Shown here: one piece after another, positions 9,438-39,890 of the stretch
How the letters are laid out: each line of letters opens with the position of its first letter
Position numbering within the stretch: position 1 is the first letter of the stretch
UHGV virus genome: UHGV-0084588
From: a virus
Direction: 5' to 3' (one strand)
Length of the DNA: 64,000 bases
Notes under the pieces: model-generated
What the model saw: the letters and a program-made list of their open reading frames with translations, nothing else
The model's database searches: none
What the model was told of the DNA's origin: nothing
Position numbers and translations under genes: made by a program

Positions 9438-9497
9438 TTTGAAAAAGTATGGGGGTACTCACTCCCCTCCTCGCATCTTTCAAAAGGTGGGGGTAAA

Positions 9498-10010: not shown

Positions 10011-10162
10011 CTAATTGGGGTAAAACGACAACTAATGCTAGTAAAATAAGAGTTAGTGAATTCGTAATTCAATAATTTTTTATAGAAAGGCTGATTTATT
10101 AGAATCGGAGGGGGTAAGATGTTGCTAGAAACATTTCACCCCCTACCATAGGGAGTAAGCTT

Positions 10163-23639: not shown

Positions 23640-23692
23640 AAAATAAAAAAATACCTACCTCCCGTAATAGGAGGTAGGTATATCTTTTTTTC
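23640..23692. terminator. bidirectional terminator
   Basis: A-run, then ATACCTACCTCC-cgtaata-GGAGGTAGGTAT, then T-run, between convergent genes. Confidence 0.8.
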
Positions 23693-23700
23693 ACTGTCGA

Positions 23701-24372
23701 TTACAGCCCTTGCTCTAACGCAAACGCTTTTATCGAATCGTAATCACGCGCCTCAGCCCAAGCCCTGACTTCTTTTTTCTGCTCAGACATTGCGTGGTGT
23801 AGTCTTTGATCACGCGCAACGATTGCTGCCATCAGCGCTTTGCACTGCTCTAACGAAAAAGGTTCGATGCGGGTGTTAGCCGTGTCCAACCAATAACTCG
23901 GTGCTGTTTCAGACTGGATATACTGGCCCAACATTTGACGAGACGTTTCGTCCGCTTGGAAGTAGCGACCATCGACTTCAATATATCCGTGGCGCTGATC
24001 TTCATAACGGTGTTCCATCTCCAACATGATTTTCTGGATATCGAGATAGATGTAACGCGCCGTCGAACGCATATTCGTTCGAATCTCTTCCAGGTTAATC
24101 TCCAGAACGTCAGTAATGAATTCTTTTGCTTTGTTCAGTGTAAACTTCGACTCGATAGGAGACATTTCGTAAGTTTTCATCTGGGCTAAAGCTTCTTCAT
24201 CACTCATCCCTTCAATCAACTTGTAGTGCAGTAATGCACAGAACCCCGTACGTCCACGGTCTTCGTTACCTACACGTTCCATGTAGTTACCATGGCGGTC
24301 AATTGGTAGATCGTGCGCGAAATAACGTGCGCGAATCTCTTCTTTCGTTAAGCTTTTGTTAGAAGCAGACAT
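23701..24372 (-). CDS. hypothetical protein (last gene of the radical SAM block)
   Basis: 223-aa ORF overlapping the upstream gene by about 25 nt. Confidence 0.55.
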   Translation of the reverse strand: MSASNKSLTKEEIRARYFAHDLPIDRHGNYMERVGNEDRGRTGFCALLHYKLIEGMSDEEALAQMKTYEMSPIESKFTLNKAKEFITDVLEINLEEIRTNMRSTARYIYLDIQKIMLEMEHRYEDQRHGYIEVDGRYFQADETSRQMLGQYIQSETAPSYWLDTANTRIEPFSLEQCKALMAAIVARDQRLHHAMSEQKKEVRAWAEARDYDSIKAFALEQGL

Positions 24373-24914
24373 TCTTCTTCTCCAACCATACCTAATTCTT
24401 GCAGCAAGCCAAAATCAATCAACTGGAAGGTTTCAGAGAGATCGTTTGACCACACCACGTTTGCAATGTCGCGTTCTTCATCGGATAATTGCGGTAACAC
24501 ATTTTCGTTGAACGTCTGATGCTCTACGTAATAAGCATCGTAGATAGACGTAGAACGCAAGCAACGGATTGGCAGTCTTGGGAAAGACACCGCTAATGCA
24601 GCAATAGATGCGCTGCTCGGATTCTCCGCAGAATAGCGAAGCAATTCGATTTTGTGGCGCGGATAGTCCAGTACGCGTTGCTCGAAACCCGGATTACGTT
24701 TTTCGATTTCAACAACGGACTCATGACCTGTTTCTGTACAGTAAACGGGAATCATCACGTTTAGCCCGTACTTAATTAACAGAGGTTTAATCTCATCTGT
24801 AAAGTCTTCGCCAGGGATAATGGCGTGAACGTTATAGAGTTTATGTTTGCGCAGAAAACGCTCAACCAGATGGAGTTTACGCTTCGTAAAATTGTGGATC
24901 AGAATTGATTTCAT
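24348..24914 (-). CDS. hypothetical protein
   Basis: Start taken at the internal ATG at 24914 (GAGG about 9 nt upstream); overlaps the 3' end of the radical SAM gene. Confidence 0.45.
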   Translation of the reverse strand: MKSILIHNFTKRKLHLVERFLRKHKLYNVHAIIPGEDFTDEIKPLLIKYGLNVMIPVYCTETGHESVVEIEKRNPGFEQRVLDYPRHKIELLRYSAENPSSASIAALAVSFPRLPIRCLRSTSIYDAYYVEHQTFNENVLPQLSDEERDIANVVWSNDLSETFQLIDFGLLQELGMVGEEECLLLTKA

Positions 24915-26211
24915 TATTTGCCTCAGTAGGTTGTGCATTTAAAGCACGTTTAGCTTGCTCACGCTCACGCGTACATTTCGGACAGTAACAAACAGACGAA
25001 TCGTGCAGTGACGATGCGTGGACGGTACCCGTACGTTGACGCCAGTATTCTGCTGCCATCAGTTTTGCGGTCGTCCAGCCACATTGACGACGTTCAGCGT
25101 GGTACGCCTTACGGTCTTCCAGTGTCCCTTCACCGTTTTCGTAGGAAGCAGCTGCACAGCTGCCACAACCGTGTTTCATCGGACAGCCTAAGCACGTTTC
25201 AGGGTAGTTAGTATATTGCGTCTGAATCTCTTCCAGCAGCTTCCCGTCATCTAAACTAACGAACTCGCGACCAACTAATTCAAACACCGCAGAACGTGAC
25301 GTTACCGTTGACATAAAACGGTTACAACCGTATACCTTGCGGTCAAAACCTAAACAGGTCATGAACGTTAACGTACCACAGAACGGACGTAGGCGATCTG
25401 GGTTATAACGATGCGTGTCGTCATACAGCAGCTTATCGCGCCAATCTGGGTCCCAAATCTGACGGAAATCCAGACCTTCGGGAATGATATGTGACAACAC
25501 GTTACGTGGATTGGTGTGCAACCCTTTCTCAATCCAATAATCCATCACGTCGATCATCTGCAACGCAATATCCGTTGCCATGCTCCGTGGAAGAATATCT
25601 TCGTACGTAACGTTACCTGAAATCGTACCGCCACCGGCAACATCGATTAGCGATTTCATACTCGCTGCATAATGCGGTAACGTTTCGGTCGTAAAGGTTG
25701 CCTTGATACCCAGTTCAGCAATACCGACTTCTTTTAAGTAGTTATAGCCACGAACAGCGGCTTCGTAAGAACCTTGACGCGTCGTGGTAAAGATACGATA
25801 GCGGTCATGGACTTCTGGTAAACCGTCGATAGAAACACCGATGGAGAGTTTGTCTTTCCAACGCTCAACAATCTCACGGTTTAACGGGCGATCTAACAAC
25901 GTACCGTTAGTTGAGATACTGAACATATACGGGCGATTGTGCTCCTTACACAACTGTTCTGCGGTTTCGAACGCCGCTAACAGCAGTTTCGGTTGCATAA
26001 AAGGCTCACCGCCGATGATATCAATAATGACGTCGATGTTCGGAATATCTTTATCGCGCTCAAAACACGCGTGTAAGAAATCCACGATATCCGCCGCTTT
26101 GTTATTACGCGGATACTTACGTTCGTAACAATACTCACAGTCTAAGTTACAAGACAGATTCGTTACCACCTGGTAAGTACGTTGAGAACGTGGTGCTTCA
26201 TTATTGCTCAT
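24877..26211 (-). CDS. radical SAM enzyme with C-terminal SPASM-like Cys cluster
   Basis: CNLDCEYC (CxxxCxxC) at residues 21-28, GGEPF SAM-binding motif, and C-terminal CLGCPMKHGCGSC plus additional Cys, as in SPASM maturases. Confidence 0.75.
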   Translation of the reverse strand: MSNNEAPRSQRTYQVVTNLSCNLDCEYCYERKYPRNNKAADIVDFLHACFERDKDIPNIDVIIDIIGGEPFMQPKLLLAAFETAEQLCKEHNRPYMFSISTNGTLLDRPLNREIVERWKDKLSIGVSIDGLPEVHDRYRIFTTTRQGSYEAAVRGYNYLKEVGIAELGIKATFTTETLPHYAASMKSLIDVAGGGTISGNVTYEDILPRSMATDIALQMIDVMDYWIEKGLHTNPRNVLSHIIPEGLDFRQIWDPDWRDKLLYDDTHRYNPDRLRPFCGTLTFMTCLGFDRKVYGCNRFMSTVTSRSAVFELVGREFVSLDDGKLLEEIQTQYTNYPETCLGCPMKHGCGSCAAASYENGEGTLEDRKAYHAERRQCGWTTAKLMAAEYWRQRTGTVHASSLHDSSVCYCPKCTREREQAKRALNAQPTEANNEINSDPQFYEA

Positions 26212-27118
26212 CTTTGCTTATCCTTTTACGCTCTGCATAAATCACGCGTTTAATGTACTCGTAAGCACCTACTCCAATAGAGCAAGCGAGCTGATTGCAG
26301 CCACCGTTTAAGATAGCTGGGGCATTCTGAAGCTGATGTTCTGTTCCATCTGCGTTCAAATACAACTCTTCGCTACAAACATTACACTCGTTTTCGAAAA
26401 TCTTGCTGACAGACACGCCGCACGATTCTCCAGTTTGGACGTTCAACCGTTCCATATTCTCCTGAATTTTTAAATAGCCATAAACGAAGTTCATGACGTG
26501 ATCAGGAGACAATGGTTTTGGCATCTGCGCATCAAACATTAGAGAAAACGCACGGGGACGATAGTGGTACATCGCACGATGCAAATCCACAATATCTTCA
26601 TACCAGCGCTTATCCGCTAACTGGTCACGCGTAATCACAGCCCAGGTTTGGAAATTATCGAGTTCGTATAACGCTTCCAATGCTTCGTGGCTATCCTCTT
26701 CAATAAAGCGCATAAAAGGGCGCTCAGAACGCTTGTAGCCATCAATTGATACAAACACATGCTCAAAGTCTTTTAGCAGCGTAAGATGCGATTTACGCAG
26801 TTTTAAGCCGTTGGTATACAAGTGATGCTCAAGGTGCGGATGAGACACTTTCAATTCGTTAACGAAATCCTCAATCTTACGTTGGACGAGTAGCGGCTCG
26901 CCACCGGTCCAATGTATTTCCTTAATAGCCGGATTCTCTTGTAGTAATTCCAGGATACGTTCGCGTTGAAAAGCACGAGACGAATCTTCACGATTCATGT
27001 AGTAGGCTCCACCGCAGAAACTACAATCTAGGTTACACTTAGACGTCGTAACTACGGACAATATAGTGGGTTTATCGTACAACTTCGTCGAGATCCTGGA
27101 TTCCACATTGTCTATCAT
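26201..27118 (-). CDS. radical SAM enzyme (second, shorter)
   Basis: CNLDCSFC (CxxxCxxC) near the N-terminus, GGEPLL motif, and a C-terminal Cys cluster (CNVCSEE...GGCNQLACS); overlaps the downstream gene by 11 nt. Confidence 0.7.
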   Translation of the reverse strand: MIDNVESRISTKLYDKPTILSVVTTSKCNLDCSFCGGAYYMNREDSSRAFQRERILELLQENPAIKEIHWTGGEPLLVQRKIEDFVNELKVSHPHLEHHLYTNGLKLRKSHLTLLKDFEHVFVSIDGYKRSERPFMRFIEEDSHEALEALYELDNFQTWAVITRDQLADKRWYEDIVDLHRAMYHYRPRAFSLMFDAQMPKPLSPDHVMNFVYGYLKIQENMERLNVQTGESCGVSVSKIFENECNVCSEELYLNADGTEHQLQNAPAILNGGCNQLACSIGVGAYEYIKRVIYAERKRISKDEQ

Positions 27119-27138: not shown

Positions 27139-28026
27139 TTAAATATAATCGATGGCGAATAAAGGATCTTCGTCGAAGTTAACACCTGGTTTTAAAATCA
27201 GTGGTGAATTATACGCTTCCAGTAAACGGTTAAGTTCGTTGTAGCGGCTATTCATCCGTTTGAGGTCTTCTAAGGTTACAACACGGTCCAGCATCGGTTT
27301 AACCGCTGCGGCTTCCTCGTCAGTCAATTTAACTTTCGACAACAGGAAACTGACGAGTTTAGAAATGTCCGCTTCGGTGGCTGGACTCTGACCGAAACGT
27401 ACCTGAACCATGTGCTGCATCCACGGTTTACGAATGCGTTTCGTAATCACGTGTTCGTCAGTAATGGCTTTCCAAACCGAACGCTCACGAATCCATTCAA
27501 ACTTATAGCTGTACGCCATTAAGTCAGCCAGATGCGTAATTCCGAGTTCTTGATAACCTTCAATATCGATATACGGTTCCGTATCAAAATACTCTTTGGT
27601 ATCCTTTTCAACCAAAGCGTAGTAGTTAGGGAACGCACCCAGGTAGTCTGGGCTCCACCAACGACGGGCCATCGGTTTAGCATCGAGTTCTTCAAACGGC
27701 GTGAACATAAGTTCTAAGTCAACTGTATTATTTAACACACCGTCGCTAAAGAAATATTTGCCGTCGATAAGTTTACCGCGTTGTGAGTTATCACCGGTAA
27801 AGACAACAATGCTTTCGCCAACCATATCACGAATTTTAAACGTGTTCTCAACCGTAAAGTTGTCACGATTAGCGATATGACGGCCGCGCACTTTCGGCCA
27901 TTCCCCAGGAATCATGGCAATTAAACGTACGTCGTCGGCAAGATGGTGACGTACCGAATCAGGGGAAGAGATGTGAAGTGGATGATTGAACGTTGTCGTA
28001 TATGCAAGATGTAGATCGTTCTTCAT
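27139..28026 (-). CDS. hypothetical protein
   Basis: 295-aa ORF between the Cys-rich genes and the radical SAM genes. Confidence 0.55.
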   Translation of the reverse strand: MKNDLHLAYTTTFNHPLHISSPDSVRHHLADDVRLIAMIPGEWPKVRGRHIANRDNFTVENTFKIRDMVGESIVVFTGDNSQRGKLIDGKYFFSDGVLNNTVDLELMFTPFEELDAKPMARRWWSPDYLGAFPNYYALVEKDTKEYFDTEPYIDIEGYQELGITHLADLMAYSYKFEWIRERSVWKAITDEHVITKRIRKPWMQHMVQVRFGQSPATEADISKLVSFLLSKVKLTDEEAAAVKPMLDRVVTLEDLKRMNSRYNELNRLLEAYNSPLILKPGVNFDEDPLFAIDYI

Positions 28027-28094: not shown

Positions 28095-28301
28095 TTACCT
28101 TCCCCCCGCACCTTTACTACAGCTACCACTGCACGCCCAGCTACAACTGCCGTTACAGTTATAGTGGGTTAATGGTAATCCTGCCAAGTTATTCGTCGTG
28201 GACACCGTACCTTGGTTAGCGATGTAGTTATTCGCGTCTGAGGTTTTGATGTAGCCTTCAACCTGACCGATTCTGTCTCGAATATTTTTGAGGGAAATCA
28301 C
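28095..28301 (-). CDS. Cys-rich leader/core small protein 3 (short core)
   Basis: GTG start with AGGAGGTGA RBS; leader MISLKNIRDRIGQVEGYIK..., then HYNCNGSCSWACSGSCSKGAGGR. Confidence 0.6.
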   Translation of the reverse strand: MISLKNIRDRIGQVEGYIKTSDANNYIANQGTVSTTNNLAGLPLTHYNCNGSCSWACSGSCSKGAGGR

Positions 28302-28311
28302 TTCTCACCTC

Positions 28312-28707
28312 CTATCGTCCTGTACACGCTGAGCAACCGCCAGTACAGCTACTGGAACACGATGCTGTGCACCCGCCAGAACAAGTGCCTGAGCACAGGT
28401 TAGCACACCCACCTGAACAACTCCCCGAGCACCCTGAACACGAAGTGGAACACCCTGACGTACAGTTTGCAGAACATGAGGAACCACAACCGCCGGACGC
28501 GTTCCCAGTACACCCACCAGAACAACTCGAACAGGTAAACGAACACGTACCCGCACAGTCGTAATGCGCACGATTCTGACCGCCGAACAGGTCTGCGTTA
28601 TTCGTACCTTTATTGCGGATATAGTTCTGTACACCCGTGGTATTTTTCAGTGCGATACTATCGACGTTATTAAGACGTCTTACTAATTCAGATAAACCGA
28701 CTGCCAT
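28312..28707 (-). CDS. Cys-rich leader/core small protein 2
   Basis: Leader MAVGLSELVRRLNNVDS... then an ~80-aa core of C-[ST]-x-x-C repeats (HYDCAGTCSFTCSSCSGGCTGN...); GGGGGAAG RBS. Confidence 0.65.
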   Translation of the reverse strand: MAVGLSELVRRLNNVDSIALKNTTGVQNYIRNKGTNNADLFGGQNRAHYDCAGTCSFTCSSCSGGCTGNASGGCGSSCSANCTSGCSTSCSGCSGSCSGGCANLCSGTCSGGCTASCSSSCTGGCSACTGR

Positions 28708-28716
28708 TTCTTCCCC

Positions 28717-29109
28717 CTATCGTCCAGAGCATCCGCCGGAGCAAGCACCCGAACAGTTATGCGAACAACGTCCAGTACAACTTCCGGTACAGGTACTTGT
28801 ACAACTGCTAGAACAACCGCCAGAACAGCCAGAGCATCCTGAACAGTTACCCCCACAGGACGAAGAACAGCTACCCACACAAGCGGCTGAACAGTTACCT
28901 GAACAGCTAGAGCAACCGTGACTACATCCGTTAGAACATGTCCACGAACACGTTCCTCCGCAGTCTAAACGTGAAGGTGTCCAACCAGAAAACGAATCTG
29001 CCGCGTTATGCGCTTTCGATGCGACCTGCGCATCGACACGAGGGCCGGTAGCGACTGTATTTTCTACTACGGTTAACCGATCGCGCATTTGTTTAACACT
29101 AATCGCCAT
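28717..29109 (-). CDS. Cys-rich leader/core small protein 1
   Basis: Leader MAISVKQMRDRLTVVEN... then SRLDCGGTCSWTCSNGCSHGCSSCSGNCS... ending GCSGR; AAGGAAG RBS. Confidence 0.65.
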   Translation of the reverse strand: MAISVKQMRDRLTVVENTVATGPRVDAQVASKAHNAADSFSGWTPSRLDCGGTCSWTCSNGCSHGCSSCSGNCSAACVGSCSSSCGGNCSGCSGCSGGCSSSCTSTCTGSCTGRCSHNCSGACSGGCSGR

Positions 29110-29113
29110 TACG

Positions 29114-29164
29114 CTTCCTTAAAATTAAAATAGAGGAGGAACCAGCCATAAGCATAGTTCCTCC
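29114..29164 (-). terminator. hairpin/terminator between the fibre genes and the Cys-rich cluster
   Basis: 8-bp stem GGAGGAAC/GTTCCTCC with a 14-nt loop; on the minus strand it is followed by TCTATTTTAATTTT. Confidence 0.5.
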
Positions 29165-29174
29165 TGTAATAAAA

Positions 29175-30374
29175 TTATCTCGTACCTGCTTCTGCCTGAA
29201 CGTCATCACGGGACGTCAAGTTAGCGTTAACGTGCACTGAAGCCTGAACCACACCGCCGTATTTCTTGTGCAGGTAACCTGTGTGTGGGTTATCCGCCGC
29301 AATATGGTTTTGTAGGTTCTGATTCGCCTGACTGATTGCGTTCGTGTTATTCGCAACCTGTTGTTTAAGCGCATCCAAGTTTTGTTGCAGATTATCAATT
29401 TTCTGATCGGTCTCATTACCCCGCTGTTCTAACGCAGCAATGCGCTGAATCGCTTGGTTGAGCTTGGTGTTCAGATCGTTGATATTTTTCTGTAACTGTA
29501 ACACTAACGAGTTTAGGTTCGCCAGTGCCAGTGCCATTTTCTGGTAGTTTTGTGCAACGACGTTAAGTTGGTCGTTCCACGCTTCCAGAGATTTGACAAC
29601 AGCATCAATACGTTTTCCTAACGCTTCGTCCGCTTTCTTCAATGCGTTGATTTCAGTAATCGTTGCATCAATGGCAGACTGCACGTCGCGGATAAGCGCA
29701 CGGATTTCCGTTTCCGTTAACCCGTTAACCTGATGAATATCCAGATGGTGGACATTACCAGTGGAGTTAATGTGCGCGTTCAGCGCGTCCAGGAAATCGT
29801 TTTTCAGGCTATCGAGAATCGCTTTGATGTTCTCAAGCTGTACAGCATCGCCCGCAGTTATCGCATCTTTAATACCGGCGAGCACTGTAATGATGTATTC
29901 GAAGCCGTAGATATCGCCGACGTCTTTATACGTTGGTGCCGAAGGAAACGTGTCCGGCACATTTCGCAAGTCTTTAAAGCCAACAGTTCGATTATCGAGA
30001 TTCAACTCGGCAATCGCTTGCTCAATCGCGGTCACAACTGCAGACTGTGGACCACCAACTACTTGCGCCGATACCGTGATATCGGTCGGAATCGCGGTGT
30101 TCGTTACAACAACCGCCATTACTACTTCCCGGTTCTTCGTCAATTTCTCGTAAGCCGGGTGTGCAAAAATCAGCTCATAGTCCGTTCCACGCTCATACGT
30201 CGCTCCAGGTCGATTGGCAACCCGCAAGCGGAACGTATCGGCATAAAACGGGCCATCAGGGAAAGCAAACGCACGGTTAACTTTACCTGTACCTAACGTA
30301 ATCTGACGCTCCACGGCGTTAGAGGTTAGGGTTCCCGTTAAATCTAAAGGGTATTGGTATACAATGGAGGCCAT
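29175..30374 (-). CDS. fibre-like protein with N-terminal anchor motif and coiled-coil shaft
   Basis: Start at the ATG at 30374 (AAGGAGAG RBS); N-terminal FAFPDGPFYADTFRLRV...GTDYELIF shared with the three giant tailspikes; long heptad-like region. Confidence 0.6.
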   Translation of the reverse strand: MASIVYQYPLDLTGTLTSNAVERQITLGTGKVNRAFAFPDGPFYADTFRLRVANRPGATYERGTDYELIFAHPAYEKLTKNREVVMAVVVTNTAIPTDITVSAQVVGGPQSAVVTAIEQAIAELNLDNRTVGFKDLRNVPDTFPSAPTYKDVGDIYGFEYIITVLAGIKDAITAGDAVQLENIKAILDSLKNDFLDALNAHINSTGNVHHLDIHQVNGLTETEIRALIRDVQSAIDATITEINALKKADEALGKRIDAVVKSLEAWNDQLNVVAQNYQKMALALANLNSLVLQLQKNINDLNTKLNQAIQRIAALEQRGNETDQKIDNLQQNLDALKQQVANNTNAISQANQNLQNHIAADNPHTGYLHKKYGGVVQASVHVNANLTSRDDVQAEAGTR

Positions 30375-30414
30375 GGCCACTCTCCTTAATCCGAGACGTC
30401 CTTGTCTCGTGGCG

Positions 30415-33400
30415 TTAAGATGTAAACATAAGATTGAACTGGAGCTTATCGATATCGCGAGTTTGTGCTGGGTTAACCGCATCGTACGTGGTTGCCACGT
30501 AGACCGTTAACGTGCCGTCAGAAAACGCGGTTTTCACCGGTGGTGTAGTCCCTGTCTGTCCATCAGTTACAATGACGACAGGTTGAGCCGGGAGTTGACG
30601 AAACTGACTCTTAACCGCTTTATACACCAAACCAGATTGTGCCGCTTGCTCTGTGGCGGTGTACACGATAAACGGTGTGTCGATATCTGTCTGTTTAATG
30701 ACAGTGTTCGTCTCAACGTCAATCAGCTGAACAGCACCAAATTTGGTCCGGTAACTATCGTATTCATTTTTTGGAATGACAAACGTAGCATGAAGGCGGA
30801 CTTCGGCGGCTGGCTTAAATCCCGCGTGTTCTTTTTCCAGGTAACTGTTAGCAGTTAGCGTTACTGTCTGTTCAGTCATCGTACCGCCAGACTGATTTAG
30901 CCCGTAACGAACTTGAGTTATACCTGTCGGGGCCGCAAGCCTGATTTTCAGTCGACGATTAGTAGTACCAGGATCGCCAGGTACTTTAACACGCAGACTC
31001 AATGCCAGATATGCATACTCGCCGGTAGTCGGTTTCGTATACGCACCCAACCACTTCATGTTCGCGGTTGCTGCTTGTTTGTTCTCAGAAGCAGTAGCCG
31101 CTGCAACGTTCGCAGCAACCGCTTTCTGCCAGAACTGGTCAGCGCAGTTCTCATACGCCACCCTGCTGATACTTTTATAACCTGAATAGGTTTCCTGTAC
31201 CGGCAACCTGGGCCGCGTTGCAATCCCGGACAACGTATTCCATTTCTGGCCATCGACATACCCAGCACCCTTGCTCGCAGATGCTGTAATGGCTTTAACG
31301 GGTTTATTAACCACTGTTAATAGTGGACCAGTTTTCCTGTCGAACGCCTGCGCCACATCGTGCTGATCAACAACCGAGGCATGATTTTCCAGCTCTTTTA
31401 CACGACCTAACCGTTTTACTTTATCGATACTGATATCCGTAATACGGTTCGAATCAGTGGTTACTGTCCCAACAAACAGTCTCGACGAGGTATCAGCTAA
31501 CTGCTCTAAACCGATGCGGTATTGGGCAGTAGAACCGACCACTTCAGCATAAACGTAGAATGTCTGGTTAGCGTGATTAGTCGGGAATTCATCGCTTAAA
31601 TCAACGGACCATCTTGGAACGGTATATCTTTTATTTCCAAAACTTAACTCGGTTTCCTCCGTCAGATAGAAATTCCAACCGCTCTGTGTTTGTACGCCGC
31701 CAATAATAATCTTATCGATAACAGTATATTTTTTGTTAAACAAATCAGAGATTCTATACTGTTCGCCACCGAGATACAACTCGTTTAAATCTTCCGAGTT
31801 ACAAGTCAATAGCGCGATGCCCGAGAGATCGGGTATATAGACTTCAGATGTATTATTCAGCGTATACGTATAGCCCCACGCCCGATGAATTTCGCCGGTA
31901 AACCATTCTCCTTTTTTAGTCAAGTTTATCCCAAAAGCAAAAGAAATCTCTGATCCTACAAGATTCCCGCCAACCAGGTTATGTATTGAGAATCTGAACT
32001 TTTGTCCGTCTTGCGAATAAAGGAAAACTTGACCGGAGCGTTGTTTAAGTTCACCATTAAAAGCTGTGGGTGAGAGATTAATGGCGTTACTGGCCACTTT
32101 TTCCCTGAACGTCATCATTCTCGCTTCCGAACTAACGAACCTTATGACCCCGTTGGTTATAGTCGGTTTTACCTGAAAGAAGTAAAAAGCAAACTTATTT
32201 ACCCCGTCAGTGTCTTTATAGATAAGACTCACTATCGCGATACAAAGCGGACCACCAGACATCGTTTGACCAAGCACCCAAAAGGACAAACTGTAGTTGT
32301 TCTTTTTGGTCTTAGCTACGCTAATCCGCTCATAGGCGTTGCCGTTAGAAGCCCCAGAGAACTGGCTGGACTGAACAATATTAGTCAACTTCGCCCATTC
32401 TGCCGCATCGATAGACAACCGATCACTAGCCACCGTAGTGGTACCGTAAACAACTTTACATGGTTTACTTTCAGCACCGATAAAGTAAGCCCCATCTAGT
32501 AGACCTTTCGGTATGTCTGGCGTAACAACCAGCGGTATATTTGTCAATACGCCGTATTCGTTCGCTTTTTTTTCAACACGGCGGGATGTTGGTCCAAACC
32601 CGCCGTATCCAGGATAACCATAAGTCGTATCTTTATCATATTCGGCTTCAATGAAATAAGCCGTTTTTTGATGTTTAAGCCATACTTTGTTTGTTCCTGG
32701 GAAGAACAATGGGAAGGTCATAGACGGTTTCCACACCGAACCCACCACAGGGTTTATCCGATTTTCAAACGTAGATTGCCCCTCATACCCCGCACTCAAC
32801 TTAACATAGTCCAGATAACTAACTCCTTCTGGGAGTTTCTGGTAATGGAGAGATGGTGCAAGTTGTTTTTCTGTCGAACAGCAGCAAGAATAAACCATAT
32901 CACCGACACAGATTCTATTGTCGGCCATATAGCCAGAACTTCGAGTAGCCCATTTCCATTTCAGCTCTATTTTTGTTCCGTCTTTTAAGTAGCAACCTGT
33001 AGTATCGATTTTGATTGGGAAGATGTTAGTTGTCTCTAACCCAACCTCCCCGGTTAATAGGTCGAGACGATAAGCACCATTCCATGGCCCGAATGTGGTA
33101 CCTTTCGTTGAAGAAAAACCAAGACAAACGCCAGACACGCCGACGGTTAACAAGTGACCGTCCTTAACAACGGGCGTTATCCATCTTGACACCCCTCTAG
33201 TTAATTGTAAATTCACTGTCCACAACGCTTTGCCTTCCGCAGTGAAGTAGGCAAGACGCTTCGTATTCGGATTATCTACATCGAACGCGCCAGGTTCAAC
33301 CAAATCGGCACACTTACCGATTTTTCGTGTAGAGCTTAAATCAACCTGTTCAAACCGATCGGTTTTATTAAGCCGCAATAACCCAACACGGAACATAGGT

Positions 33401-35601
33401 TGCGGAGTATCCTTAATGTAGTCCACCAGACTATTGTTTTTCAGATCGGCCATTAGCATCGTACGCAAAACATAAACGCCATTATCGGCTATGACCACAC
33501 GATCCATGAACATATTCGGCACAAATTCCCATGTTGTTTCTGAAACAAATTCTGAGAAAGTTACCAACCTGACATCGGTATGTTTGGTGTAATCCATTGA
33601 ACCGTTCAGTTTAACTAAATAATAATTATCGTCGCTGCCCTTCGCTATAAATGCTTCGGTACCAGTAACGGTAATTTCTTTTAGTTCCACCCCCGGATAA
33701 TTCGTCTCTAACCCTTTCGGCTTATAACGGAAAGTTGTTTTGTAAATTTCACCGAGACTTTTGTCGTTTTTTAACCCAGCAACAGCGTAATAAATACCCT
33801 CAGTTCCCGGAAGGGCAGATTTAGAACTAATTAAAGCATAAAGCTTACCTTGTTGTACCCCTATAACCATCTGGAGCGCATCCATGTTTTTACCATAACC
33901 TTCGTAATTACCCATCGACAAGATCGGCAATATCGAATTGTTGGTATATTTGCTCCCGGCCGTTGTCCATGCGGGCAAGAGGGTATTCAGTTTATCAGAG
34001 ACCTTCTTAATCTCTTTTGCGAACAACCACCCTTGGCGTGATGTGACGGCTTTATCATTCGTGGTATCAATCGCATCCCACAGCTGTAAGATACCGTCCA
34101 CTGTTGCGCTACCGATCGGGACATTATCCAAATCAGCGGTAGTGTGCGTGTGTACCTTCAAACTTTTATTTTTCAGCACGTTCGCTAATGCTTTTGTTAC
34201 CGGTTTAGCGATGGGTGTGGTGTTATTCATCTTATCGATACCGAAATCGGCCTTCGTTAAGGTTAACACCATGTTGTCGCCTGTCTTAACAAACCCTTTA
34301 CCGTTAACCGTGTAGTCGTCGTCAACGTACAAGTCCAACCGGTCTTTTAATTCGGTCACAGCCTTTTGGGAAATAGCAGTGCCTAGCGCTACAGAGGTTG
34401 CGATATTCGTAATCGAAAACACCCCATAAACCGACTCGGTTGCTGTGGGAATATTCGCATTCAACGTTAGTGGGTTAGACTGCTTCGCTGTACCGTACGG
34501 TTTTACGGTGTCAGACGATTTGAAATAGGCGTTCGCTTCAAGTAACGTTACAGACGTCAGGTACATGTTCACCATTTCTGGTGTAACCAAATACACAGAG
34601 TTATAGACCGGTGCTAATACATCCTGTTCTGACCCAGAATGTACCCAAAGCGTATTCAGCCCCGCACTAAACTCAACCGCCAAACCGGATTCGTTGTTGT
34701 CTTGGTCTGCTTTAATCACTAACGGTTGTGGTGAAGTAATTAACCACTTATCACCACGGATGCTGATGATGTGTCCACCCGGTGTTTTAAACGTTAGTTC
34801 ATTACCGTTCGTGGTACCCCAACGACCGTAAACGGTACCGAGGGCTTCGCCCATTAACTGTTCAACGTCTGATTGCTCAATGCCCGCCGAACCCATCAGC
34901 GTAGCCAGTTGGTCAATTGTCAACCCAAACGCTTTTGTAGCGTCAACAGCACGTCCTAAAACCGGAAGGGCCCCAACGTCATTGGTCGTATACTGGTGAG
35001 CGTTAGGATTAAGGTGGTGTTGGTATAGTTCTTCATCGAAAATCTTTTTACCGTTCTCGTAAATCAGGTTAGTGACTTCGGTGAAGGCCGCATCTAACTC
35101 TGTTGAACGCTGAATGATTTTCTTGCGGATATCGTTCAACGCTTTAACGACCTCGTCCCTCAGAATCGCTTCTTCTAAGTTAGCAGGGGGGTCGATTGGT
35201 TGAATAACCGGCGCGTACGCCATTAACTCCGACCAGTCCACGTTACGTGGGTCTTTCAGGTCAGTACGAACTAAGAACTTCCCGATTTCAGATTGCGGTA
35301 CACGGTATTGACGTGCTACCCCTAAAATCTCATATTCGATTTCTGTTGCAGTAAGCAACATAAACCCGCCATAAATCTGATCTTGTTCAGCTTCTGCGAG
35401 TTCTTTAAAGTAATAGCCTAAATAGTAGTCCAACCCCTCAATCAGAGTACGACGTCCGTTAGGCGCGGTATCGTCGGCTACTGTGAGTTTTAATCCGATA
35501 CGATAAAAAGGTCCTTCAGGCGGAATGACCACGTTAAATCGGTTAGGGTACGTCGTTGTGCTTAGCGTACCGTTAAACTGCGCCGCGTCTTCTCTCGGCA
35601 T
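30415..35601 (-). CDS. giant tailspike/tail-fibre protein (1728 aa)
   Basis: N-terminal VIPPEGPFYRIGLKLTV...LIEGLDYYL anchor motif (T7 gp17 / T4 gp10-like as recalled); a tail-fibre-type segment with KVHTHTTADL; AGGAG RBS. Confidence 0.75.
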   Translation of the reverse strand: MPREDAAQFNGTLSTTTYPNRFNVVIPPEGPFYRIGLKLTVADDTAPNGRRTLIEGLDYYLGYYFKELAEAEQDQIYGGFMLLTATEIEYEILGVARQYRVPQSEIGKFLVRTDLKDPRNVDWSELMAYAPVIQPIDPPANLEEAILRDEVVKALNDIRKKIIQRSTELDAAFTEVTNLIYENGKKIFDEELYQHHLNPNAHQYTTNDVGALPVLGRAVDATKAFGLTIDQLATLMGSAGIEQSDVEQLMGEALGTVYGRWGTTNGNELTFKTPGGHIISIRGDKWLITSPQPLVIKADQDNNESGLAVEFSAGLNTLWVHSGSEQDVLAPVYNSVYLVTPEMVNMYLTSVTLLEANAYFKSSDTVKPYGTAKQSNPLTLNANIPTATESVYGVFSITNIATSVALGTAISQKAVTELKDRLDLYVDDDYTVNGKGFVKTGDNMVLTLTKADFGIDKMNNTTPIAKPVTKALANVLKNKSLKVHTHTTADLDNVPIGSATVDGILQLWDAIDTTNDKAVTSRQGWLFAKEIKKVSDKLNTLLPAWTTAGSKYTNNSILPILSMGNYEGYGKNMDALQMVIGVQQGKLYALISSKSALPGTEGIYYAVAGLKNDKSLGEIYKTTFRYKPKGLETNYPGVELKEITVTGTEAFIAKGSDDNYYLVKLNGSMDYTKHTDVRLVTFSEFVSETTWEFVPNMFMDRVVIADNGVYVLRTMLMADLKNNSLVDYIKDTPQPMFRVGLLRLNKTDRFEQVDLSSTRKIGKCADLVEPGAFDVDNPNTKRLAYFTAEGKALWTVNLQLTRGVSRWITPVVKDGHLLTVGVSGVCLGFSSTKGTTFGPWNGAYRLDLLTGEVGLETTNIFPIKIDTTGCYLKDGTKIELKWKWATRSSGYMADNRICVGDMVYSCCCSTEKQLAPSLHYQKLPEGVSYLDYVKLSAGYEGQSTFENRINPVVGSVWKPSMTFPLFFPGTNKVWLKHQKTAYFIEAEYDKDTTYGYPGYGGFGPTSRRVEKKANEYGVLTNIPLVVTPDIPKGLLDGAYFIGAESKPCKVVYGTTTVASDRLSIDAAEWAKLTNIVQSSQFSGASNGNAYERISVAKTKKNNYSLSFWVLGQTMSGGPLCIAIVSLIYKDTDGVNKFAFYFFQVKPTITNGVIRFVSSEARMMTFREKVASNAINLSPTAFNGELKQRSGQVFLYSQDGQKFRFSIHNLVGGNLVGSEISFAFGINLTKKGEWFTGEIHRAWGYTYTLNNTSEVYIPDLSGIALLTCNSEDLNELYLGGEQYRISDLFNKKYTVIDKIIIGGVQTQSGWNFYLTEETELSFGNKRYTVPRWSVDLSDEFPTNHANQTFYVYAEVVGSTAQYRIGLEQLADTSSRLFVGTVTTDSNRITDISIDKVKRLGRVKELENHASVVDQHDVAQAFDRKTGPLLTVVNKPVKAITASASKGAGYVDGQKWNTLSGIATRPRLPVQETYSGYKSISRVAYENCADQFWQKAVAANVAAATASENKQAATANMKWLGAYTKPTTGEYAYLALSLRVKVPGDPGTTNRRLKIRLAAPTGITQVRYGLNQSGGTMTEQTVTLTANSYLEKEHAGFKPAAEVRLHATFVIPKNEYDSYRTKFGAVQLIDVETNTVIKQTDIDTPFIVYTATEQAAQSGLVYKAVKSQFRQLPAQPVVIVTDGQTGTTPPVKTAFSDGTLTVYVATTYDAVNPAQTRDIDKLQFNLMFTS

Positions 35602-35619
35602 CGTAAAGACTCCTACTTT

Positions 35620-35658
35620 TAAATAAAATGGATACCCCTCCCCATTACAGGGAGGGGT
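35620..35658 (-). terminator. hairpin between tailspike genes
   Basis: ACCCCTCC-ccattacag-GGAGGGGT, followed on the minus strand by a U-rich stretch and the RBS of the next gene. Confidence 0.5.
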
Positions 35659-35695
35659 TACCTACGGACACACAACTGCCCGCAGGCAGTCTGTC

Positions 35696-38600
35696 CTAAG
35701 TACGATCCCCTAACTGCTTCCCGTTAAGTTCTCGTTTCAGTACAGCCAGAATCCACTTCCACGCTTTACTCGTGATGTGGTACGGGTTGCGTTTCTCCAT
35801 TAAGAACTGACTTTCGCCGCTACGGAGTTCGAAACTCTGTGCATTGAGTTGATCTTGACGGACGCTTTTCTCGTCAGTGACATCTAACGAACAAGCGAAG
35901 TTAAGTTCATAACCTTCTGGATTATTGCCGGGTGGTTCTAAGACAATATAAATGTCCTGACCTACACGTAAGTCCTTTGGCGTAAGAGTAATCGCTTTAC
36001 CTGTATCAGAGGCGGTCGAAAGCGCAAAAGATACGCTATCAATAGCCGATACATACGGGTCCTTCCCGGCATCACCGATAATCACTTTACCCGGCCAGTT
36101 AGACTTCACCGTCCCGGCCACTTTTGCAACGCGATACTGCTGTTTATCAGCACCTTGTGCAAAGCGTAAAATGAGTTTATGGCGATAACGACTCGCAGCA
36201 GCTTTAGTCGTGCTCCACTCATTATTCCAGGAAGCGTTGAGTTCACCTTTCTTGGCCATCAAGGCACCACGAGACAGCTTACGGTCAAAGAACTGCGCAG
36301 GCAACTGACCGTCATGGGAAACAGCAACACTTCCCTGTCCGGTTGGCAGCGCGATGCTTTCTGTAACGCGGTATTTTTGACTAACCTCATAAGTCGCAGG
36401 GTCAATCACAGACTGACTAAAATCAACGTCTTTGGTATCAGCCAAATACCCAACGGACGAATCCAGATACGATTCGAACAACGAACGTAAGTAATGGTAC
36501 TTATCAATGTCGACGTTACTCGTAGCCGGATCAATCAGCGCGTGACTAATCGTTACACGGCATTTCGCAGACAGTTCTTTAAACGACAATCCCACACCGT
36601 CGCCAGTGAAATAATCCACTAAATCGAACGGGAATTGAATCTCCAGCTGTCGATGTTTAACTGTTGTCGTTCCGAACTGTGAGAACGTCAGTGCTAAACG
36701 TAATACCCGACTGTTTACGTTGTAACGATAGCGAATCATGCCACGAGGTGCATGGTTTGCAGAAATTTTATCTCGACCGGCACCCCAACCTATCAAGTCG
36801 AGCGTCGCCGCGTTGGTTTCCTCACCGTTGAACAACACATCCTTAAACGTTGCGGCCACTGCCGTTTCCCCAGACTCCTCCATCACTAACGGAATATCCG
36901 TAACAGCAGAATCTGAACGGGAACCAATCCCCAACTTACAGGTTTTGGTAGTTAGGTCAATGCGCAGATAGCGACGTTTAACGCTGCTACCTTGCGTTGA
37001 CGTGCATAGAACCAAATCCGGCGCAGCAGCAAGGGCTTGCGTTCCACCAACATCGTCAACATCGAACGCAAACGAGCCTTCGAATGTCGGTGCGTTGTTT
37101 TCTTTCGGGTTAAATGGTGTAAACCAACAATACGGCGTAGCACCTTCAGGTATCACAACGTATTGAAGACTCGACTTCACGTTTTGGTTGTGTGCGTAGG
37201 TATAAAGGCCGCGACTGACAAGATGGAAAACATCCCCTGTAGCGGTTGCTAACGGTTTCCTAAAGATACACGCTCTTGGTTCAGCAATAGCACGGTTTAA
37301 TAACGGCAGCCGTGGGTTATCCGTTAACGCCCAGTCAACAGCGCTGAGTCCGTGTGCCTTACGAGTGCTGATGTGCTCGCTAACTTCCGCACTTTTCCCG
37401 AAATCAAACGTGGTTTCAAACCCCACAGTTTTATTCGCGTAAGACTGACCAGGAACGATATCAACATATCCGATATAACCGCGCTCTGGGTCAACGGCAA
37501 TACTCTGAATCGGTTCAGCACGCGAATACAGAGAGCCTGTGAGCATGTTAACGTATAAATAGTGACGAACCCCTACGTGCGTTGTAACAAACTCCTGGAG
37601 AAGCTCTACGCGCGTTTCAGGACCACTGAAATAAACGGGGTAATCACCATCGTAAACTTCGAACTGTACCGCTGCGGATTTAGTCGTGTCGCTACACTCG
37701 GCTTTAACCGCCACTGTGTAATTTTCAACGTCTGCTGACGTTTCATACACCGCGACGAGTGGAGACTCGCCTGAAGCGGCCTGGATACCGTTAATGTAAA
37801 CCGTAACCTGACCACCCCCAGCAGCATAAACCCAGAGCTTCGGTTGGTATGCTTTTACACGCGTTTTTGCCAATACAGTAATAACTGACTGGTCACCCAT
37901 CTGTGTAGCAGTCTTACCTACCGGGACAGACTGGAACCCCATCAATGGCGGTTCTTCAATACCCGTCCAGTTGATCCCCGTACCGTTACTCACCTTACCC
38001 GTAGCCCAAGTCAGCTCAAGTTGGTTATTCGGTGAGAACCAGTTAAACATCGGGGTGGTTTGCAGGTCAATCGCACCGGTAACGGTACTGTCACCTTTCG
38101 TGCCGTCCAGCAAATAGAAATATTTCAAATCCTGAACGGAGATTGCCGTACCCTGGCTATTAAATCGCCAGTCTGCGCCTTTTACAGCAGCGAAATCCGT
38201 GACTGTTCCTTCTTTCGCATTTGCAATTGCCGCAGCGACCACACTTAAACGTGCCGAAAGCTCTTTTAAGATGTTCGGTACCACTGCACGGTTTTCAACC
38301 AAACCGTTCTGGTTAGTTGCATAACGACCAATACCGTAAACAGATTGAGAAGCTTTATAAATGCCTAACTCCGACCAATCGTGATGATGGCCTACATCTG
38401 CTAGACCGCTAACCGCCTTAGTTAACTCGGTTGACAACGGTTTGTCAAGGTCTGCGGTGTTATCCGCTTGCCCTAACCCCAGGTCAGCTTTCGTGATTGT
38501 CCTGGAGCCGTCATTCATTGGCTTACCGTTAATCATGGTCGTTTTAGCCACATACCCTGATAGGTCGGTCGAATAAGGTGTTAATGACGCTGGCGTTGCT

Positions 38601-39880
38601 GCAACCCCAACCGTTTCTGTACCTTTACCAGTTTTAAGCTTAACAACACCTTTTTCAGCGGTTGTCGCTTTCGTCGGGTCGATAGTACCCACGATAGGAT
38701 CGGTCCGAGAGCCTTTACCGGTGAAGCTAATCCCATTACGGCCTTCGATGTACACCTTCGAGTCATCAGGGTCACCGCCGCCGCTCCCGCCAGCATCAGG
38801 ATCTTGTTGGTATTCCATCAACGCCGTGGTAGTCAGTAACGGGTTACCATTCAGGGTGAGTTTGTTCATCCCTAAAGCATCGCCGGTTGACTCGATACGT
38901 AAGGTGTTTTTACCAGCACGCCAGTTAATGTAACGTCCTGCACCCGTTCCCTCCAGATGCCCTACCGCCAACACCACAGAACCGTTGGATTTTAACGTAA
39001 AGCCATCATTCGCAAAAATGATTTCTGACTCACCGTTTTTTGAGCGGAATTGTGCACGGTTTCCTGACACCGTACAGTTAAACACACCCCGTACTTCTGA
39101 AGAAATCCAGTGGGAGATATACGTGTCAATAACTGACTGTGGTAAACGAAACGCTTTCAGTTCATCCGTCAGTGCTTTCAACTTTAACCCGTACGCCATA
39201 AAGGTGTCGGGTGTTTTCAAGTTAACAGGATGTGCGCTAATCTGTGCAGAAGTAGTTTGGTGCGGGTTGGTTTCCGCGATGTGTGCCGGGTAGTTAAATG
39301 CTTCGATTTCTTTACCCAGAGCGGTGACTAACGCTTTAACTTCGGCTAATTTATCTTTAATTAGTTGGTTAGCGTCGTCGGTTTTCAATTCAACATCGTG
39401 GACCGCTGACGCTAAATATTTTTTGTTCAGCAAATCCGCCCAGGACGTTGCCGCAGGCGTAGCCGGGTATAACGACGGTCTGCCTTCTAATAACAGCCAA
39501 TCAGCGCTGACTGGGTTATTCAAATATTTCACCAGCTCATCGAGAATGTCAACAAACGGGTCGTAGAACGTACCACCGAGCATTTGTCCTTCAAAGGTTA
39601 CGATGCCCTTGATGGATGGGTTGATAAGGTGTACCCCACAATACACGTTGGCTGCTACCGAGTCATCCAGTTCTGTCAGTTGGTATTGCAGTTCGTAGTC
39701 CACCCCACGACTCAGTGGGGTGGTTGAACCTGGTTGTCTGACGACTAAATCTTCAAAGAACGGGCGATGGTCTAAAATCACCACCCGATCGTTGTTGTTT
39801 TCTGACCCGATGATACGCTCCTCTAAGAAGTGATTCTCGGTTTTCGTCCCCCGAGGATCGTAAGGATACGCTTTCATCAA
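35696..39880 (-). CDS. giant tailspike/tail-fibre protein (1394 aa)
   Basis: N-terminal RVVILDHRPFFEDLVVRQPG...GVDYELQY anchor motif; internal tail-fibre-repeat-like segment (ATTAEKGVVKLKT...TKADLGLGQADNTADLDKPLS) with VGHHHDW. Confidence 0.75.
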   Translation of the reverse strand: MMKAYPYDPRGTKTENHFLEERIIGSENNNDRVVILDHRPFFEDLVVRQPGSTTPLSRGVDYELQYQLTELDDSVAANVYCGVHLINPSIKGIVTFEGQMLGGTFYDPFVDILDELVKYLNNPVSADWLLLEGRPSLYPATPAATSWADLLNKKYLASAVHDVELKTDDANQLIKDKLAEVKALVTALGKEIEAFNYPAHIAETNPHQTTSAQISAHPVNLKTPDTFMAYGLKLKALTDELKAFRLPQSVIDTYISHWISSEVRGVFNCTVSGNRAQFRSKNGESEIIFANDGFTLKSNGSVVLAVGHLEGTGAGRYINWRAGKNTLRIESTGDALGMNKLTLNGNPLLTTTALMEYQQDPDAGGSGGGDPDDSKVYIEGRNGISFTGKGSRTDPIVGTIDPTKATTAEKGVVKLKTGKGTETVGVAATPASLTPYSTDLSGYVAKTTMINGKPMNDGSRTITKADLGLGQADNTADLDKPLSTELTKAVSGLADVGHHHDWSELGIYKASQSVYGIGRYATNQNGLVENRAVVPNILKELSARLSVVAAAIANAKEGTVTDFAAVKGADWRFNSQGTAISVQDLKYFYLLDGTKGDSTVTGAIDLQTTPMFNWFSPNNQLELTWATGKVSNGTGINWTGIEEPPLMGFQSVPVGKTATQMGDQSVITVLAKTRVKAYQPKLWVYAAGGGQVTVYINGIQAASGESPLVAVYETSADVENYTVAVKAECSDTTKSAAVQFEVYDGDYPVYFSGPETRVELLQEFVTTHVGVRHYLYVNMLTGSLYSRAEPIQSIAVDPERGYIGYVDIVPGQSYANKTVGFETTFDFGKSAEVSEHISTRKAHGLSAVDWALTDNPRLPLLNRAIAEPRACIFRKPLATATGDVFHLVSRGLYTYAHNQNVKSSLQYVVIPEGATPYCWFTPFNPKENNAPTFEGSFAFDVDDVGGTQALAAAPDLVLCTSTQGSSVKRRYLRIDLTTKTCKLGIGSRSDSAVTDIPLVMEESGETAVAATFKDVLFNGEETNAATLDLIGWGAGRDKISANHAPRGMIRYRYNVNSRVLRLALTFSQFGTTTVKHRQLEIQFPFDLVDYFTGDGVGLSFKELSAKCRVTISHALIDPATSNVDIDKYHYLRSLFESYLDSSVGYLADTKDVDFSQSVIDPATYEVSQKYRVTESIALPTGQGSVAVSHDGQLPAQFFDRKLSRGALMAKKGELNASWNNEWSTTKAAASRYRHKLILRFAQGADKQQYRVAKVAGTVKSNWPGKVIIGDAGKDPYVSAIDSVSFALSTASDTGKAITLTPKDLRVGQDIYIVLEPPGNNPEGYELNFACSLDVTDEKSVRQDQLNAQSFELRSGESQFLMEKRNPYHITSKAWKWILAVLKRELNGKQLGDRT

Positions 39881-39890
39881 AAAATTCTCC

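Follow-up and report, generated by a model that had tools for sequence, protein, structure and literature searches.

A conserved trio of cysteine-repeat proteins encoded beside two radical-SAM enzymes in the structural gene block of SPN3US-group jumbo phages

Background

In the 64,000-nt stretch of the virus genome UHGV-0084588 analyzed here (hereafter, the window), three small adjacent genes, which we call A, B and C, encode a related N-terminal part followed by a core rich in regularly spaced cysteines, and two radical S-adenosylmethionine (radical-SAM) enzymes are encoded just downstream on the same strand. The locus raises the question of whether the trio encodes peptide precursors with detachable leaders, as an initial annotation of the DNA had suggested by describing conserved leaders and diversifying cores, or proteins of another kind, and what the enzymes do to them. 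We find that the cores are the better conserved part and have a fixed cysteine architecture, that the trio and its enzymes form an invariant block behind virion structural genes, and that the same module ends recognized tail-fiber proteins elsewhere. The reading we lean towards, with modest confidence, is that A, B and C are fiber- or baseplate-associated proteins whose cysteine rods are crosslinked, probably through thioethers, by the radical-SAM pair of the phage.

The window belongs to a jumbo phage of the SPN3US group. Its DNA is approximately 75% identical to that of SPN3US and of Erwinia phage pEa_SNUABM_29, and over 14 kb around the trio it is 100% identical to IMGVR_UViG_3300045988_113438 (220,786 bp).

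Results

Three genes under strong purifying selection

The three open reading frames (ORFs) that had been claimed for 28095-29109 are all present there. The genes and their spacers, the latter read from the sequence, are as follows.

28717-29109, minus strand: gene A, 130 aa, ATG start; heptad helix, neck (NAADSFSGWTPSRLDC) and an 81-residue C-[ST]-G-x domain with 21 Cys
28312-28707, minus strand: gene B, 131 aa, ATG start; paralog with 20 Cys
28095-28301, minus strand: gene C, 68 aa, GTG start; short paralog with 4 Cys and the C-terminus GAGGR
29115-29120, minus strand: ribosome-binding site (RBS) of A, AAGGAA, 5 nt 5' of the ATG
28708-28716, minus strand: A-B spacer of 9 nt with the RBS-like sequence GGGGAAG
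28302-28311, minus strand: B-C spacer of 10 nt with the RBS GAGGTGA

The spacers bear out the description of genes some 10 nt apart, each with its own RBS, and the sequence AAGGAA(A/G)CGUA-AUG ahead of gene A is the same in five genera.

A, B and C are real genes under strong purifying selection. Against their SPN3US orthologs, the proportion of synonymous differences (pS) is about 0.7, i.e. saturated, and that of nonsynonymous differences (pN) is 0.15-0.22; the ratio of nonsynonymous to synonymous rates (dN/dS) in this frame is 0.08 for A, 0.12 for B and 0.09 for C. Each of them also matches phrog_6085, a family with no assigned function (E 2.7e-37 for A, 8.6e-43 for B, 1.2e-25 for C). Relatives in which the ORFs were absent or disrupted would have spoken against the initial annotation; instead, none of the relatives examined departs from an intact trio ordered A-B-C. 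They comprise nine GenBank loci, 18 IMG/VR jumbo-phage loci and contig L017. These trio-bearing relatives span Seoulvirus, Erskinevirus, Machinavirus, Derbicusvirus and Wellingtonvirus.

Public records present this locus differently. In SPN3US (NC_027402; L002 9015-10044), where the corrected ORFs of A, B and C lie on the minus strand at 9652-10044, 9237-9641 and 9015-9221, B is covered by an off-frame call, gp100/SPN3US_0166, and no call is made for A or C; in pEa_SNUABM_29 (L001 9016-10038), ORFs with 'PEQ' repeats are annotated on the opposite strand instead (00267/00268). Such records, with other frames or the opposite strand annotated at the trio, are what favors the view that the frames of the trio are open by chance, in DNA that is GC-rich and repetitive, and that the true genes lie in the frames or on the strand annotated in GenBank. 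The 'PEQ' ORFs are the mirror image of the Cys, Ser and Gly codons. Against the chance-frame view stand a dN/dS of about 0.1 in the present frame with synonymous change saturated, the retention of starts, stops, RBSs and Cys positions across five genera, and the existence of PHROG and profile homologs. These comparative data refute the non-gene reading, which we regard as so improbable that it can be set aside. There is thus an annotation gap, with three conserved genes lacking or wrongly called in SPN3US as well as many of 56 related phage records. Because the ORFs are unannotated, their proteins could not have been detected in the SPN3US virion proteomes, which are therefore uninformative on A, B and C; the text of the SPN3US paper nowhere mentions gp161-167.

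A fixed cysteine architecture

We aligned nine protein sequences, the three paralogs from each of three phages. Eleven columns were invariant in all nine (M1, R11, C50, G52, C54, S55, C58, S59, C62, S63 and G65). The near-identical junction between leader and core noted initially was recovered exactly as described, with the pattern C-x-G-x-C-S-[WF]-x-C-S, reading LDCGGTCSWTCS in A, YDCAGTCSFTCS in B and YNCNGSCSWACS in C. All three also carry a neck motif, N-A-x-x-[FL]-x-G-x5-[YL]-x-C, through which, in many other phages, the shaft of a tail fiber is joined to the distal domain. Residues ~3-20 of each protein form an amphipathic heptad helix, and no fewer than 94% of the orthologs of A and B have hydrophobic residues at positions 5, 8, 12, 15 and 19/20; an N-terminal peptide from the trio proteins is, for example, LTVVENTVATGPR. 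The leader motif proposed initially, [IL]-x-x-x-R-x-R-[LI]-x-x-V-[ED], holds in part: C fits it fully, but A has V in place of [IL], B lacks the first R, and R11 alone is invariant. Likewise, all three proteins of the window end in Gly-Arg as described, but relatives end in GP, GPM, GPQ, GSR or GNR.

From the first Cys onward the cores comprise 81, 81 and 20 residues in A, B and C, in good agreement with the C-[ST]-x-x-C cores of about 80, 80 and 18 residues first reported, and contain 21, 20 and 4 Cys. Ser or Thr directly follows Cys in 81% of cases. The Cys spacings are 33332333332233333333 in A and 3323733332333333332 in B, i.e. the CXXX pattern of a Cys at every fourth residue. In most orthologs of B, Ala replaces one repeat Cys (CTGNASGGC). 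In 17 loci, not one Asp or Glu occurs in any of the three cores. Scans of A, B and C against Pfam gave no match, nor did C match in an NCBIfam scan, and a sequence search of the PDB with the family profile also returned nothing. An AlphaFold2 (AF2) model of A built on a 26-sequence alignment had a mean predicted local distance difference test score (pLDDT) of 55.7 and was confident in the N-terminal helix only.

The expectation of a conserved leader and a diversified core turned out to be reversed. The N-terminal part of A is 67% identical between the window and SPN3US, against 86% for the core, and the corresponding values for the paralogs A and B are 27% and 57%; overall, identities range over 27-74% for the N-terminus and 57-86% for the core, where the values are inflated by low complexity, although the Cys spacing string is conserved too. 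This string is kept across genera in A. Exactly 21 Cys are found in A at all ~25 related jumbo-phage loci checked, from five genera, and in 17/17 IMG/VR loci and every GenBank locus the A core keeps these 21 Cys and is free of acidic residues; for B, the count in related jumbo-phage loci is 20-23. The fixed number and spacing of the cysteines argue for a defined structure.

The same counts lend no support to the proposal that this DNA is a likely site of expansion and contraction. The DNA is GC-enriched in the cores as described (0.51-0.57 vs approximately 0.45 in the flanks), but its repeats are weak and degenerate: the best Tandem Repeats Finder array over the trio scored 73, with 72% matches and 2.5 copies, and no long exact DNA repeats were found in the trio region. 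Given the weak repeats and the fixed Cys counts, we rejected the idea that DNA repeats, whether tandem or direct, drive changes in length, and the two observations together indicate a fixed architecture rather than an expanding and contracting array.

An invariant gene neighborhood with two radical-SAM enzymes

The trio lies between virion structural genes and a set of downstream genes that ends at one terminator. The features around it are listed below in the direction of transcription.

30415-35601, minus strand: 1728-aa baseplate/fiber protein, ortholog of SPN3US gp168 by synteny
29175-30482, minus strand: 435-aa coiled-coil virion structural protein upstream of the trio, ortholog of SPN3US gp167 (phrog_2163, E 5e-104)
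29123-29176, minus strand: hairpin with a U-rich tail between the 435-aa gene and A, an inverted repeat (centroid -19.8 kcal/mol, minimum free energy -21.3, z -2.6)
27139-28026, minus strand: 295-aa accessory protein of unknown fold, ortholog of SPN3US gp165
26201-27118, minus strand: 305-aa radical-SAM enzyme, the short partner (PF04055, E 8.5e-15)
24877-26211, minus strand: 444-aa radical-SAM/SPASM enzyme, the long partner (TIGR04115, 124.7 bits)
24348-24938, minus strand: 196-aa protein, always the next cassette gene (phrog_7988; in all 18 jumbo-phage IMG/VR loci)
23701-24372, minus strand: 223-aa DUF4376 protein, the last before the terminator (PF14301, E 3.9e-10; weak tail/tail-fiber PHROG matches)
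23651-23681: terminator-like bidirectional hairpin with a perfect 13-bp stem, ending the minus-strand structural/maturation block

The order of the ten genes, from the 1728-aa gene through the 435-aa gene, A, B, C, the accessory gene, the short and the long radical-SAM genes and the 196-aa gene to the DUF4376 gene, is invariant in 18/18 jumbo-phage IMG/VR loci. The whole block lies downstream of virion structural genes and runs into the single terminator at 23651-23681, which on its other side faces plus-strand genes ending at 23637. The trio is therefore enclosed by orthologs of gp167 and gp168 on one side and the tail-type DUF4376 protein on the other, placing it within a tail-fiber/baseplate block; SPN3US gp168 is a baseplate/fiber tail protein similar to phiKZ gp131 (PMC5105663).

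The 444-aa enzyme has the radical-SAM motif CX3CX2C at C21/C25/C28 (residues 21-28), and its SPASM cysteines C278, C296, C340, C343, C349, C352 and C377 are invariant in ten sequences. Its best families are TIGR04115, the maturase of CXXX repeats, and then PapB (111.7 bits), and its nearest solved structure is the thioether-forming enzyme CteB (5WGG, E 7.7e-13). The alignment begins at CteB residue 106, indicating that the phage enzyme lacks the N-terminal recognition element (RRE) of enzymes that act on peptides made by the ribosome and modified after translation (RiPPs). From these sequence features, the 444-aa protein is likely the crosslinking maturase of the cassette. The 305-aa enzyme carries CX3CX2C at residues 28-35 and partly conserved C-terminal cysteines 245, 248 and 274; its best families, all weak, are W-cofactor maturase, MoaA and HxsC. 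On the substrate side, A and B weakly match the TIGR04114 target model (15.9 and 13.2 bits), and C does not match it.

The 295-aa protein occurs in this phage clade only. Its AF2 model is confident (pLDDT 86.9), and no structural neighbor was found for it; the accessory proteins of the fiber-type cassettes described below share its conserved helical C-terminal part. Neither this protein nor the 196-aa protein matched in the NCBIfam scan. By family and profile scans, no protease, transporter/exporter or immunity gene was recognizable in the conserved cassette. The initial suggestion of leader-guided modification is supported in part: with a radical-SAM pair directly downstream on the same strand, A, B and C do resemble substrates of a dedicated system for peptide modification. 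The N-terminal ~50 residues do not look like a typical detachable RiPP leader, since they recur elsewhere as a fiber neck, the long enzyme lacks an RRE and neither protease nor exporter accompanies them.

Several features of the neighborhood are worth recording in their own right. At 29175-44213 on the minus strand lie four consecutive virion structural proteins of 1440, 1394, 1728 and 435 aa; in a scan of the 1440-, 1394- and 435-aa proteins, phrog_2163 is matched by the two large ones at their N-termini and by the 435-aa protein over nearly its full length. All four look like members of the phiKZ gp131/gp145-type paralog family that has been described in SPN3US. The 435-aa protein is called a 'virion structural protein' in the annotations of relatives, whose orthologs have 399-412 aa; in the window, the start of the longest ORF overlaps the end of the 1728-aa gene, and the true start is probably internal, giving ~401 aa (MAMASIVYQYPL...). 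The hairpin at 29123-29176 stands at the same place in five genera with differing stems, and every loop contains UAUGG or UAUGC; the hairpin could act in termination, mark a site of processing or serve as a promoter element for a phage polymerase. The IMG/VR jumbo phages L023 and L024 (7418-8329) carry a third radical-SAM gene between A and B, whose 303-aa product is 51% identical to the 305-aa enzyme.

The same module ends tail-fiber proteins of other phages

A word-indexed search with A returned few relatives, among them 200-aa PF27846 (tSAM_targ_Cxxx_rpt) proteins in phage-like contigs. The distant A homologs P0006 and P0007 have PF27846/TIGR04114-type repeats and adjoin radical-SAM enzymes, and the enzymes beside such homologs score 463 bits (L015) and 335 bits (L011) on TIGR04115. 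In L014 and L015, tail-fiber genes stand beside the CXXX gene and a radical-SAM gene.

A profile of the N-terminal part plus the junction, searched exhaustively, gave 47 proteins. Many of these are 200-500 aa long and begin with tail-fiber N-terminal parts, including collagen-like GPAGADG repeats, 'KKLDGI', 'ATEVEAAAGVLTNKAVTP' and long coiled coils; in P0087, residues 1-125 match the N-terminal domain with which the epsilon15/phiV10 tailspikes bind the particle. Their C-termini carry the motif '...NAxxLxGxxxxxYYRCxNGCSWTCSSxC' followed by 60-170 residues of CXXX repeats. The trio is thus homologous to recognized tail-fiber proteins through their C-terminal module.

The enzymes recur together with this module. 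In L018, L019, L020, L039 and L042, the fiber-CXXX gene is followed by an accessory gene (~240 aa), a short radical-SAM gene (~270 aa) and a long one (~370-400 aa), and in L019 and L042 this cassette occupies the slot directly after the CXXX fiber gene. The long enzymes of L018 and L019 are 34% identical to that of the window (E 1e-55 to 1e-61); homology extends to the short enzyme (L018 rSAM273, E 3e-9) and the accessory protein (E 2e-7). L018 is a 228-kb contig with a T4 gp13-like gene, and L019 is a temperate phage that encodes both an integrase and an M15 endolysin. A compact cassette of target module, accessory protein and two radical-SAM enzymes therefore recurs in jumbo, T4-like and temperate phages. 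Overall, a CXXX protein adjoins a radical-SAM gene in eight of nine independent non-jumbo lineages with enough flanking sequence, as well as in every jumbo locus. Among isolated phages, the radical-SAM family is limited to the SPN3US, Erwinia jumbo-phage and Cronobacter CR5 group.

Two further contexts came to light in these searches. At L041 4964-7053, two divergent CXXX-repeat proteins (286 and 350 aa) are encoded beside a resolvase and a TnpB-like gene, the sole context found without an adjacent radical-SAM gene. In the phage-like contigs L011/L012 (175-179 kb), a called gene at 6677-7465 has three in-frame stops under table 11, which suggests a recoded phage with an alternative genetic code; a CXXX protein and a TIGR04115-like radical-SAM enzyme are encoded there as well.

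Extended forms of gene C

Gene C keeps the N-terminal part and junction in relatives, with 2-4 Cys. In contig L017, which is ~98% identical to the window over gene C, the product (P0055) has 210 aa, including an extra 142-aa β-rich C-terminal domain (extension at 8190-8633). The two sequences diverge exactly at a run of G, six long in the window (28098-28110, with the plus-strand C-run at 28102-28107) and eleven long in L017, where the loss of a single G would restore the short form of C. Slippage could switch between long and short C, the module could have been swapped, or the assembly could be in error. No remnant of the L017 C-terminal domain was found in the window or the other loci. P0063 is another extended C-type protein, with a globular C-terminal extension of ~80 aa. 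Such extensions indicate modular behavior typical of fiber or adaptor proteins rather than of RiPP precursors.

Discussion

A thioether-laddered rod as a candidate virion part

The invariant linkage of the genes suggests that the neighboring enzymes modify the cores of the trio. The 295-aa, 305-aa and 444-aa proteins would then make up a maturation cassette acting on the cysteine repeats. By analogy with PapB and CteB, the SPASM enzyme would most likely link the sulfur of each Cys to a carbon in a residue nearby, creating thioether rings, and the most plausible acceptor would be the conserved Ser or Thr three residues before each Cys; the arrangement S/T-x-x-C is an analogue of the N-x-x-C motif of ranthipeptides. 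Some 20 small rings would turn a flexible Gly/Ser chain into a covalently laddered, rigid and reduction-proof rod that could be made in the cytoplasm. The accessory 295-aa protein may stand in for the missing RRE. Without being cleaved or released, the finished proteins would stay anchored through their N-terminal helices to the gp167/gp168 fiber apparatus as part of the virion, and A, B and C may form a hetero-oligomer, possibly a heterotrimer.

In its most general form, the proposal is that phages build a part of the virion by RiPP-type radical-SAM chemistry, which would convert C-[ST]-G-x repeats at fiber ends into a thioether ladder. In the SPN3US clade, where three small stand-alone paralogs bear the repeats, the heptad helices would bring A, B and C together, possibly in a 1:1:1 heterotrimer, with C carrying exchangeable receptor-binding domains. 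We offer this fuller picture tentatively, as a serious possibility to which we would not yet commit.

Some of our observations weigh against placing A, B and C among crosslinked fiber proteins. The 444-aa enzyme scores far under the TIGR04115 cutoff (124.7 vs 350 bits), A and B are under that of TIGR04114 (15.9 and 13.2 vs 20 bits), and the repeat domain has no confident fold in the AF2 model (pLDDT ~50). The terminator-like hairpin sets the trio apart from the upstream structural genes. The trio proteins are much shorter than the fiber-type homologs and have no shaft, so they could be free-standing, and the CXXX proteins of L041 have no radical-SAM gene within 6 kb.

A rival reading is a classical RiPP pathway, in which the N-terminal 50 aa would serve as a leader, guide the radical-SAM enzymes and then be cut off, releasing the Cys-rich cores as bioactive peptides, diffusible or intracellular, such as a bacteriocin-like product or one aimed at the host or its defenses. 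In its favor, RiPP pathways are where the enzyme family (TIGR04115, PapB and SCIFF-type SPASM maturases) is otherwise met, the proteins could be cleaved or recognized at the conserved junction, the models of bacterial CXXX targets are short, at 46-98 positions (TIGR04117, TIGR04118), and the small A, B and C proteins have no fiber shaft. Yet the conserved cassette includes no protease, transporter or immunity gene, the long enzyme has no RRE domain, and the N-terminus is less conserved than the core, the opposite of what a leader should show. Moreover, the supposed leader is an internal neck in tail-fiber proteins of 200-500 aa, C is almost core-less yet equally conserved and can carry a globular domain, and the trio lies inside a late structural block. 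Taken together, these points make a classical RiPP unlikely in our view.

Alternatively, the cysteines may serve as metal or iron-sulfur ligands or form disulfides after lysis, in a structural or cofactor-handling role, and the radical-SAM enzymes may modify the large fiber proteins or a small molecule. Cys-X3 arrays do resemble metal-binding sequences, the repeat domain on its own has no predicted fold, both curated CXXX models are missed at their cutoffs, and the L041 proteins show that CXXX repeats occur with no radical-SAM gene nearby. This last case is set against adjacency in eight of the nine non-jumbo lineages and every jumbo locus; such co-occurrence is what defines the TIGR04114/TIGR04115 pair, and in L019 and L042 the cassette directly follows the CXXX fiber gene. 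We consider a metal or disulfide role improbable.

If radical-SAM crosslinking of the trio as fiber-associated proteins is correct, the phage particle would contain an enzymatically crosslinked structural protein, and the CXXX-repeat radical-SAM family, so far without an assigned chemistry or role, would gain a biological function. In the searchable literature, which leaves most subscription journals outside, we found no publication on the trio genes or on radical-SAM-modified phage fibers. The idea is directly testable, as SPN3US is an established genetic model in which the enzymes (gp163 and gp164) and substrates are now defined, and the cassette could serve for making multiply crosslinked peptide rods.

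Comparison with known systems

The trio is not a member of the PapB, SCIFF or Hxs systems, each of which it resembles in part. PapB makes freyrasin, a ranthipeptide with Cys-Asp thioethers in CX3D motifs. It is the second-best family of the long enzyme, shares its SPASM architecture, and acts on tandem short Cys repeats, each of which is expected to become a small ring, as in the trio. However, PapB requires a carboxylate acceptor (PMC10739248). The cores of A, B and C offer no Asp or Glu in a Cys-X3-Asp/Glu arrangement or elsewhere, so this chemistry cannot apply and Cys-Asp linkage was ruled out; the score of 111.7 bits also falls short of the NF047865 cutoff of 340, and the product here is probably a protein domain.

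With the SCIFF maturase CteB, the 444-aa enzyme shares the radical-SAM core and the two sets of auxiliary-cluster Cys, but it starts at the radical-SAM motif (Cys21) and lacks the ~100-residue N-terminal RRE, and the substrate in the window is not a 45-residue peptide with six Cys. It scores 56 bits on TIGR03974 against a cutoff of 425, and A, B and C do not match the SCIFF model. In combining a repeat target with an accessory protein and a short and a long (SPASM) radical-SAM enzyme, the locus has the four-part layout of the His-Xaa-Ser system (HxsA/B/C/D), and HxsB and HxsC rank among the better matches of the two enzymes. Here, too, the scores are far from the cutoffs (HxsB 74.8 vs 370 bits, HxsC 47.2 vs 267.9 bits), no match to HxsD was found, and the repeat in the window is C-[ST]-G-x and not H-x-S.

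Two further systems are instructive for what becomes of the product. In QhpD/QhpC, a SPASM enzyme installs Cys thioethers in a protein that stays a structural subunit. The QhpD model is among the matches of the 444-aa enzyme (55.5 bits), a weak similarity, and unlike in the window its acceptors are Asp and Glu, it is not phage-borne and its substrate has no repeats. In T4 gp37, His-x-His iron sites form a short-period repeat of reactive side chains that stabilizes a thin fiber segment near the distal end. That stabilization is non-enzymatic and uses histidine, in contrast to what we propose for the window; the likeness is conceptual only, and no sequence relationship is expected.

The closest relative is the CXXX-repeat radical-SAM pair (TIGR04114/TIGR04115, PF27846), a RiPP-like system defined bioinformatically. 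To our knowledge it has no experimental characterization, and we found none in the literature. The trio differs from it in several ways: both target and enzyme of the window score under the curated cutoffs (20 and 350 bits), two radical-SAM enzymes and a 295-aa accessory protein take the place of a single enzyme, the targets carry a tail-fiber neck and lie in a virion structural block, and there are three paralogous targets with fixed Cys counts. What they share is a Cys at every fourth residue, a SPASM radical-SAM gene beside the target, and an enzyme with CX3CX2C and the SPASM auxiliary-cluster cysteines. The gap is bridged by the phage intermediates L015 and L011, whose enzymes meet or nearly meet the TIGR04115 cutoff and adjoin A homologs. 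The trio is distantly related to the CXXX-repeat radical-SAM system and would work like it.

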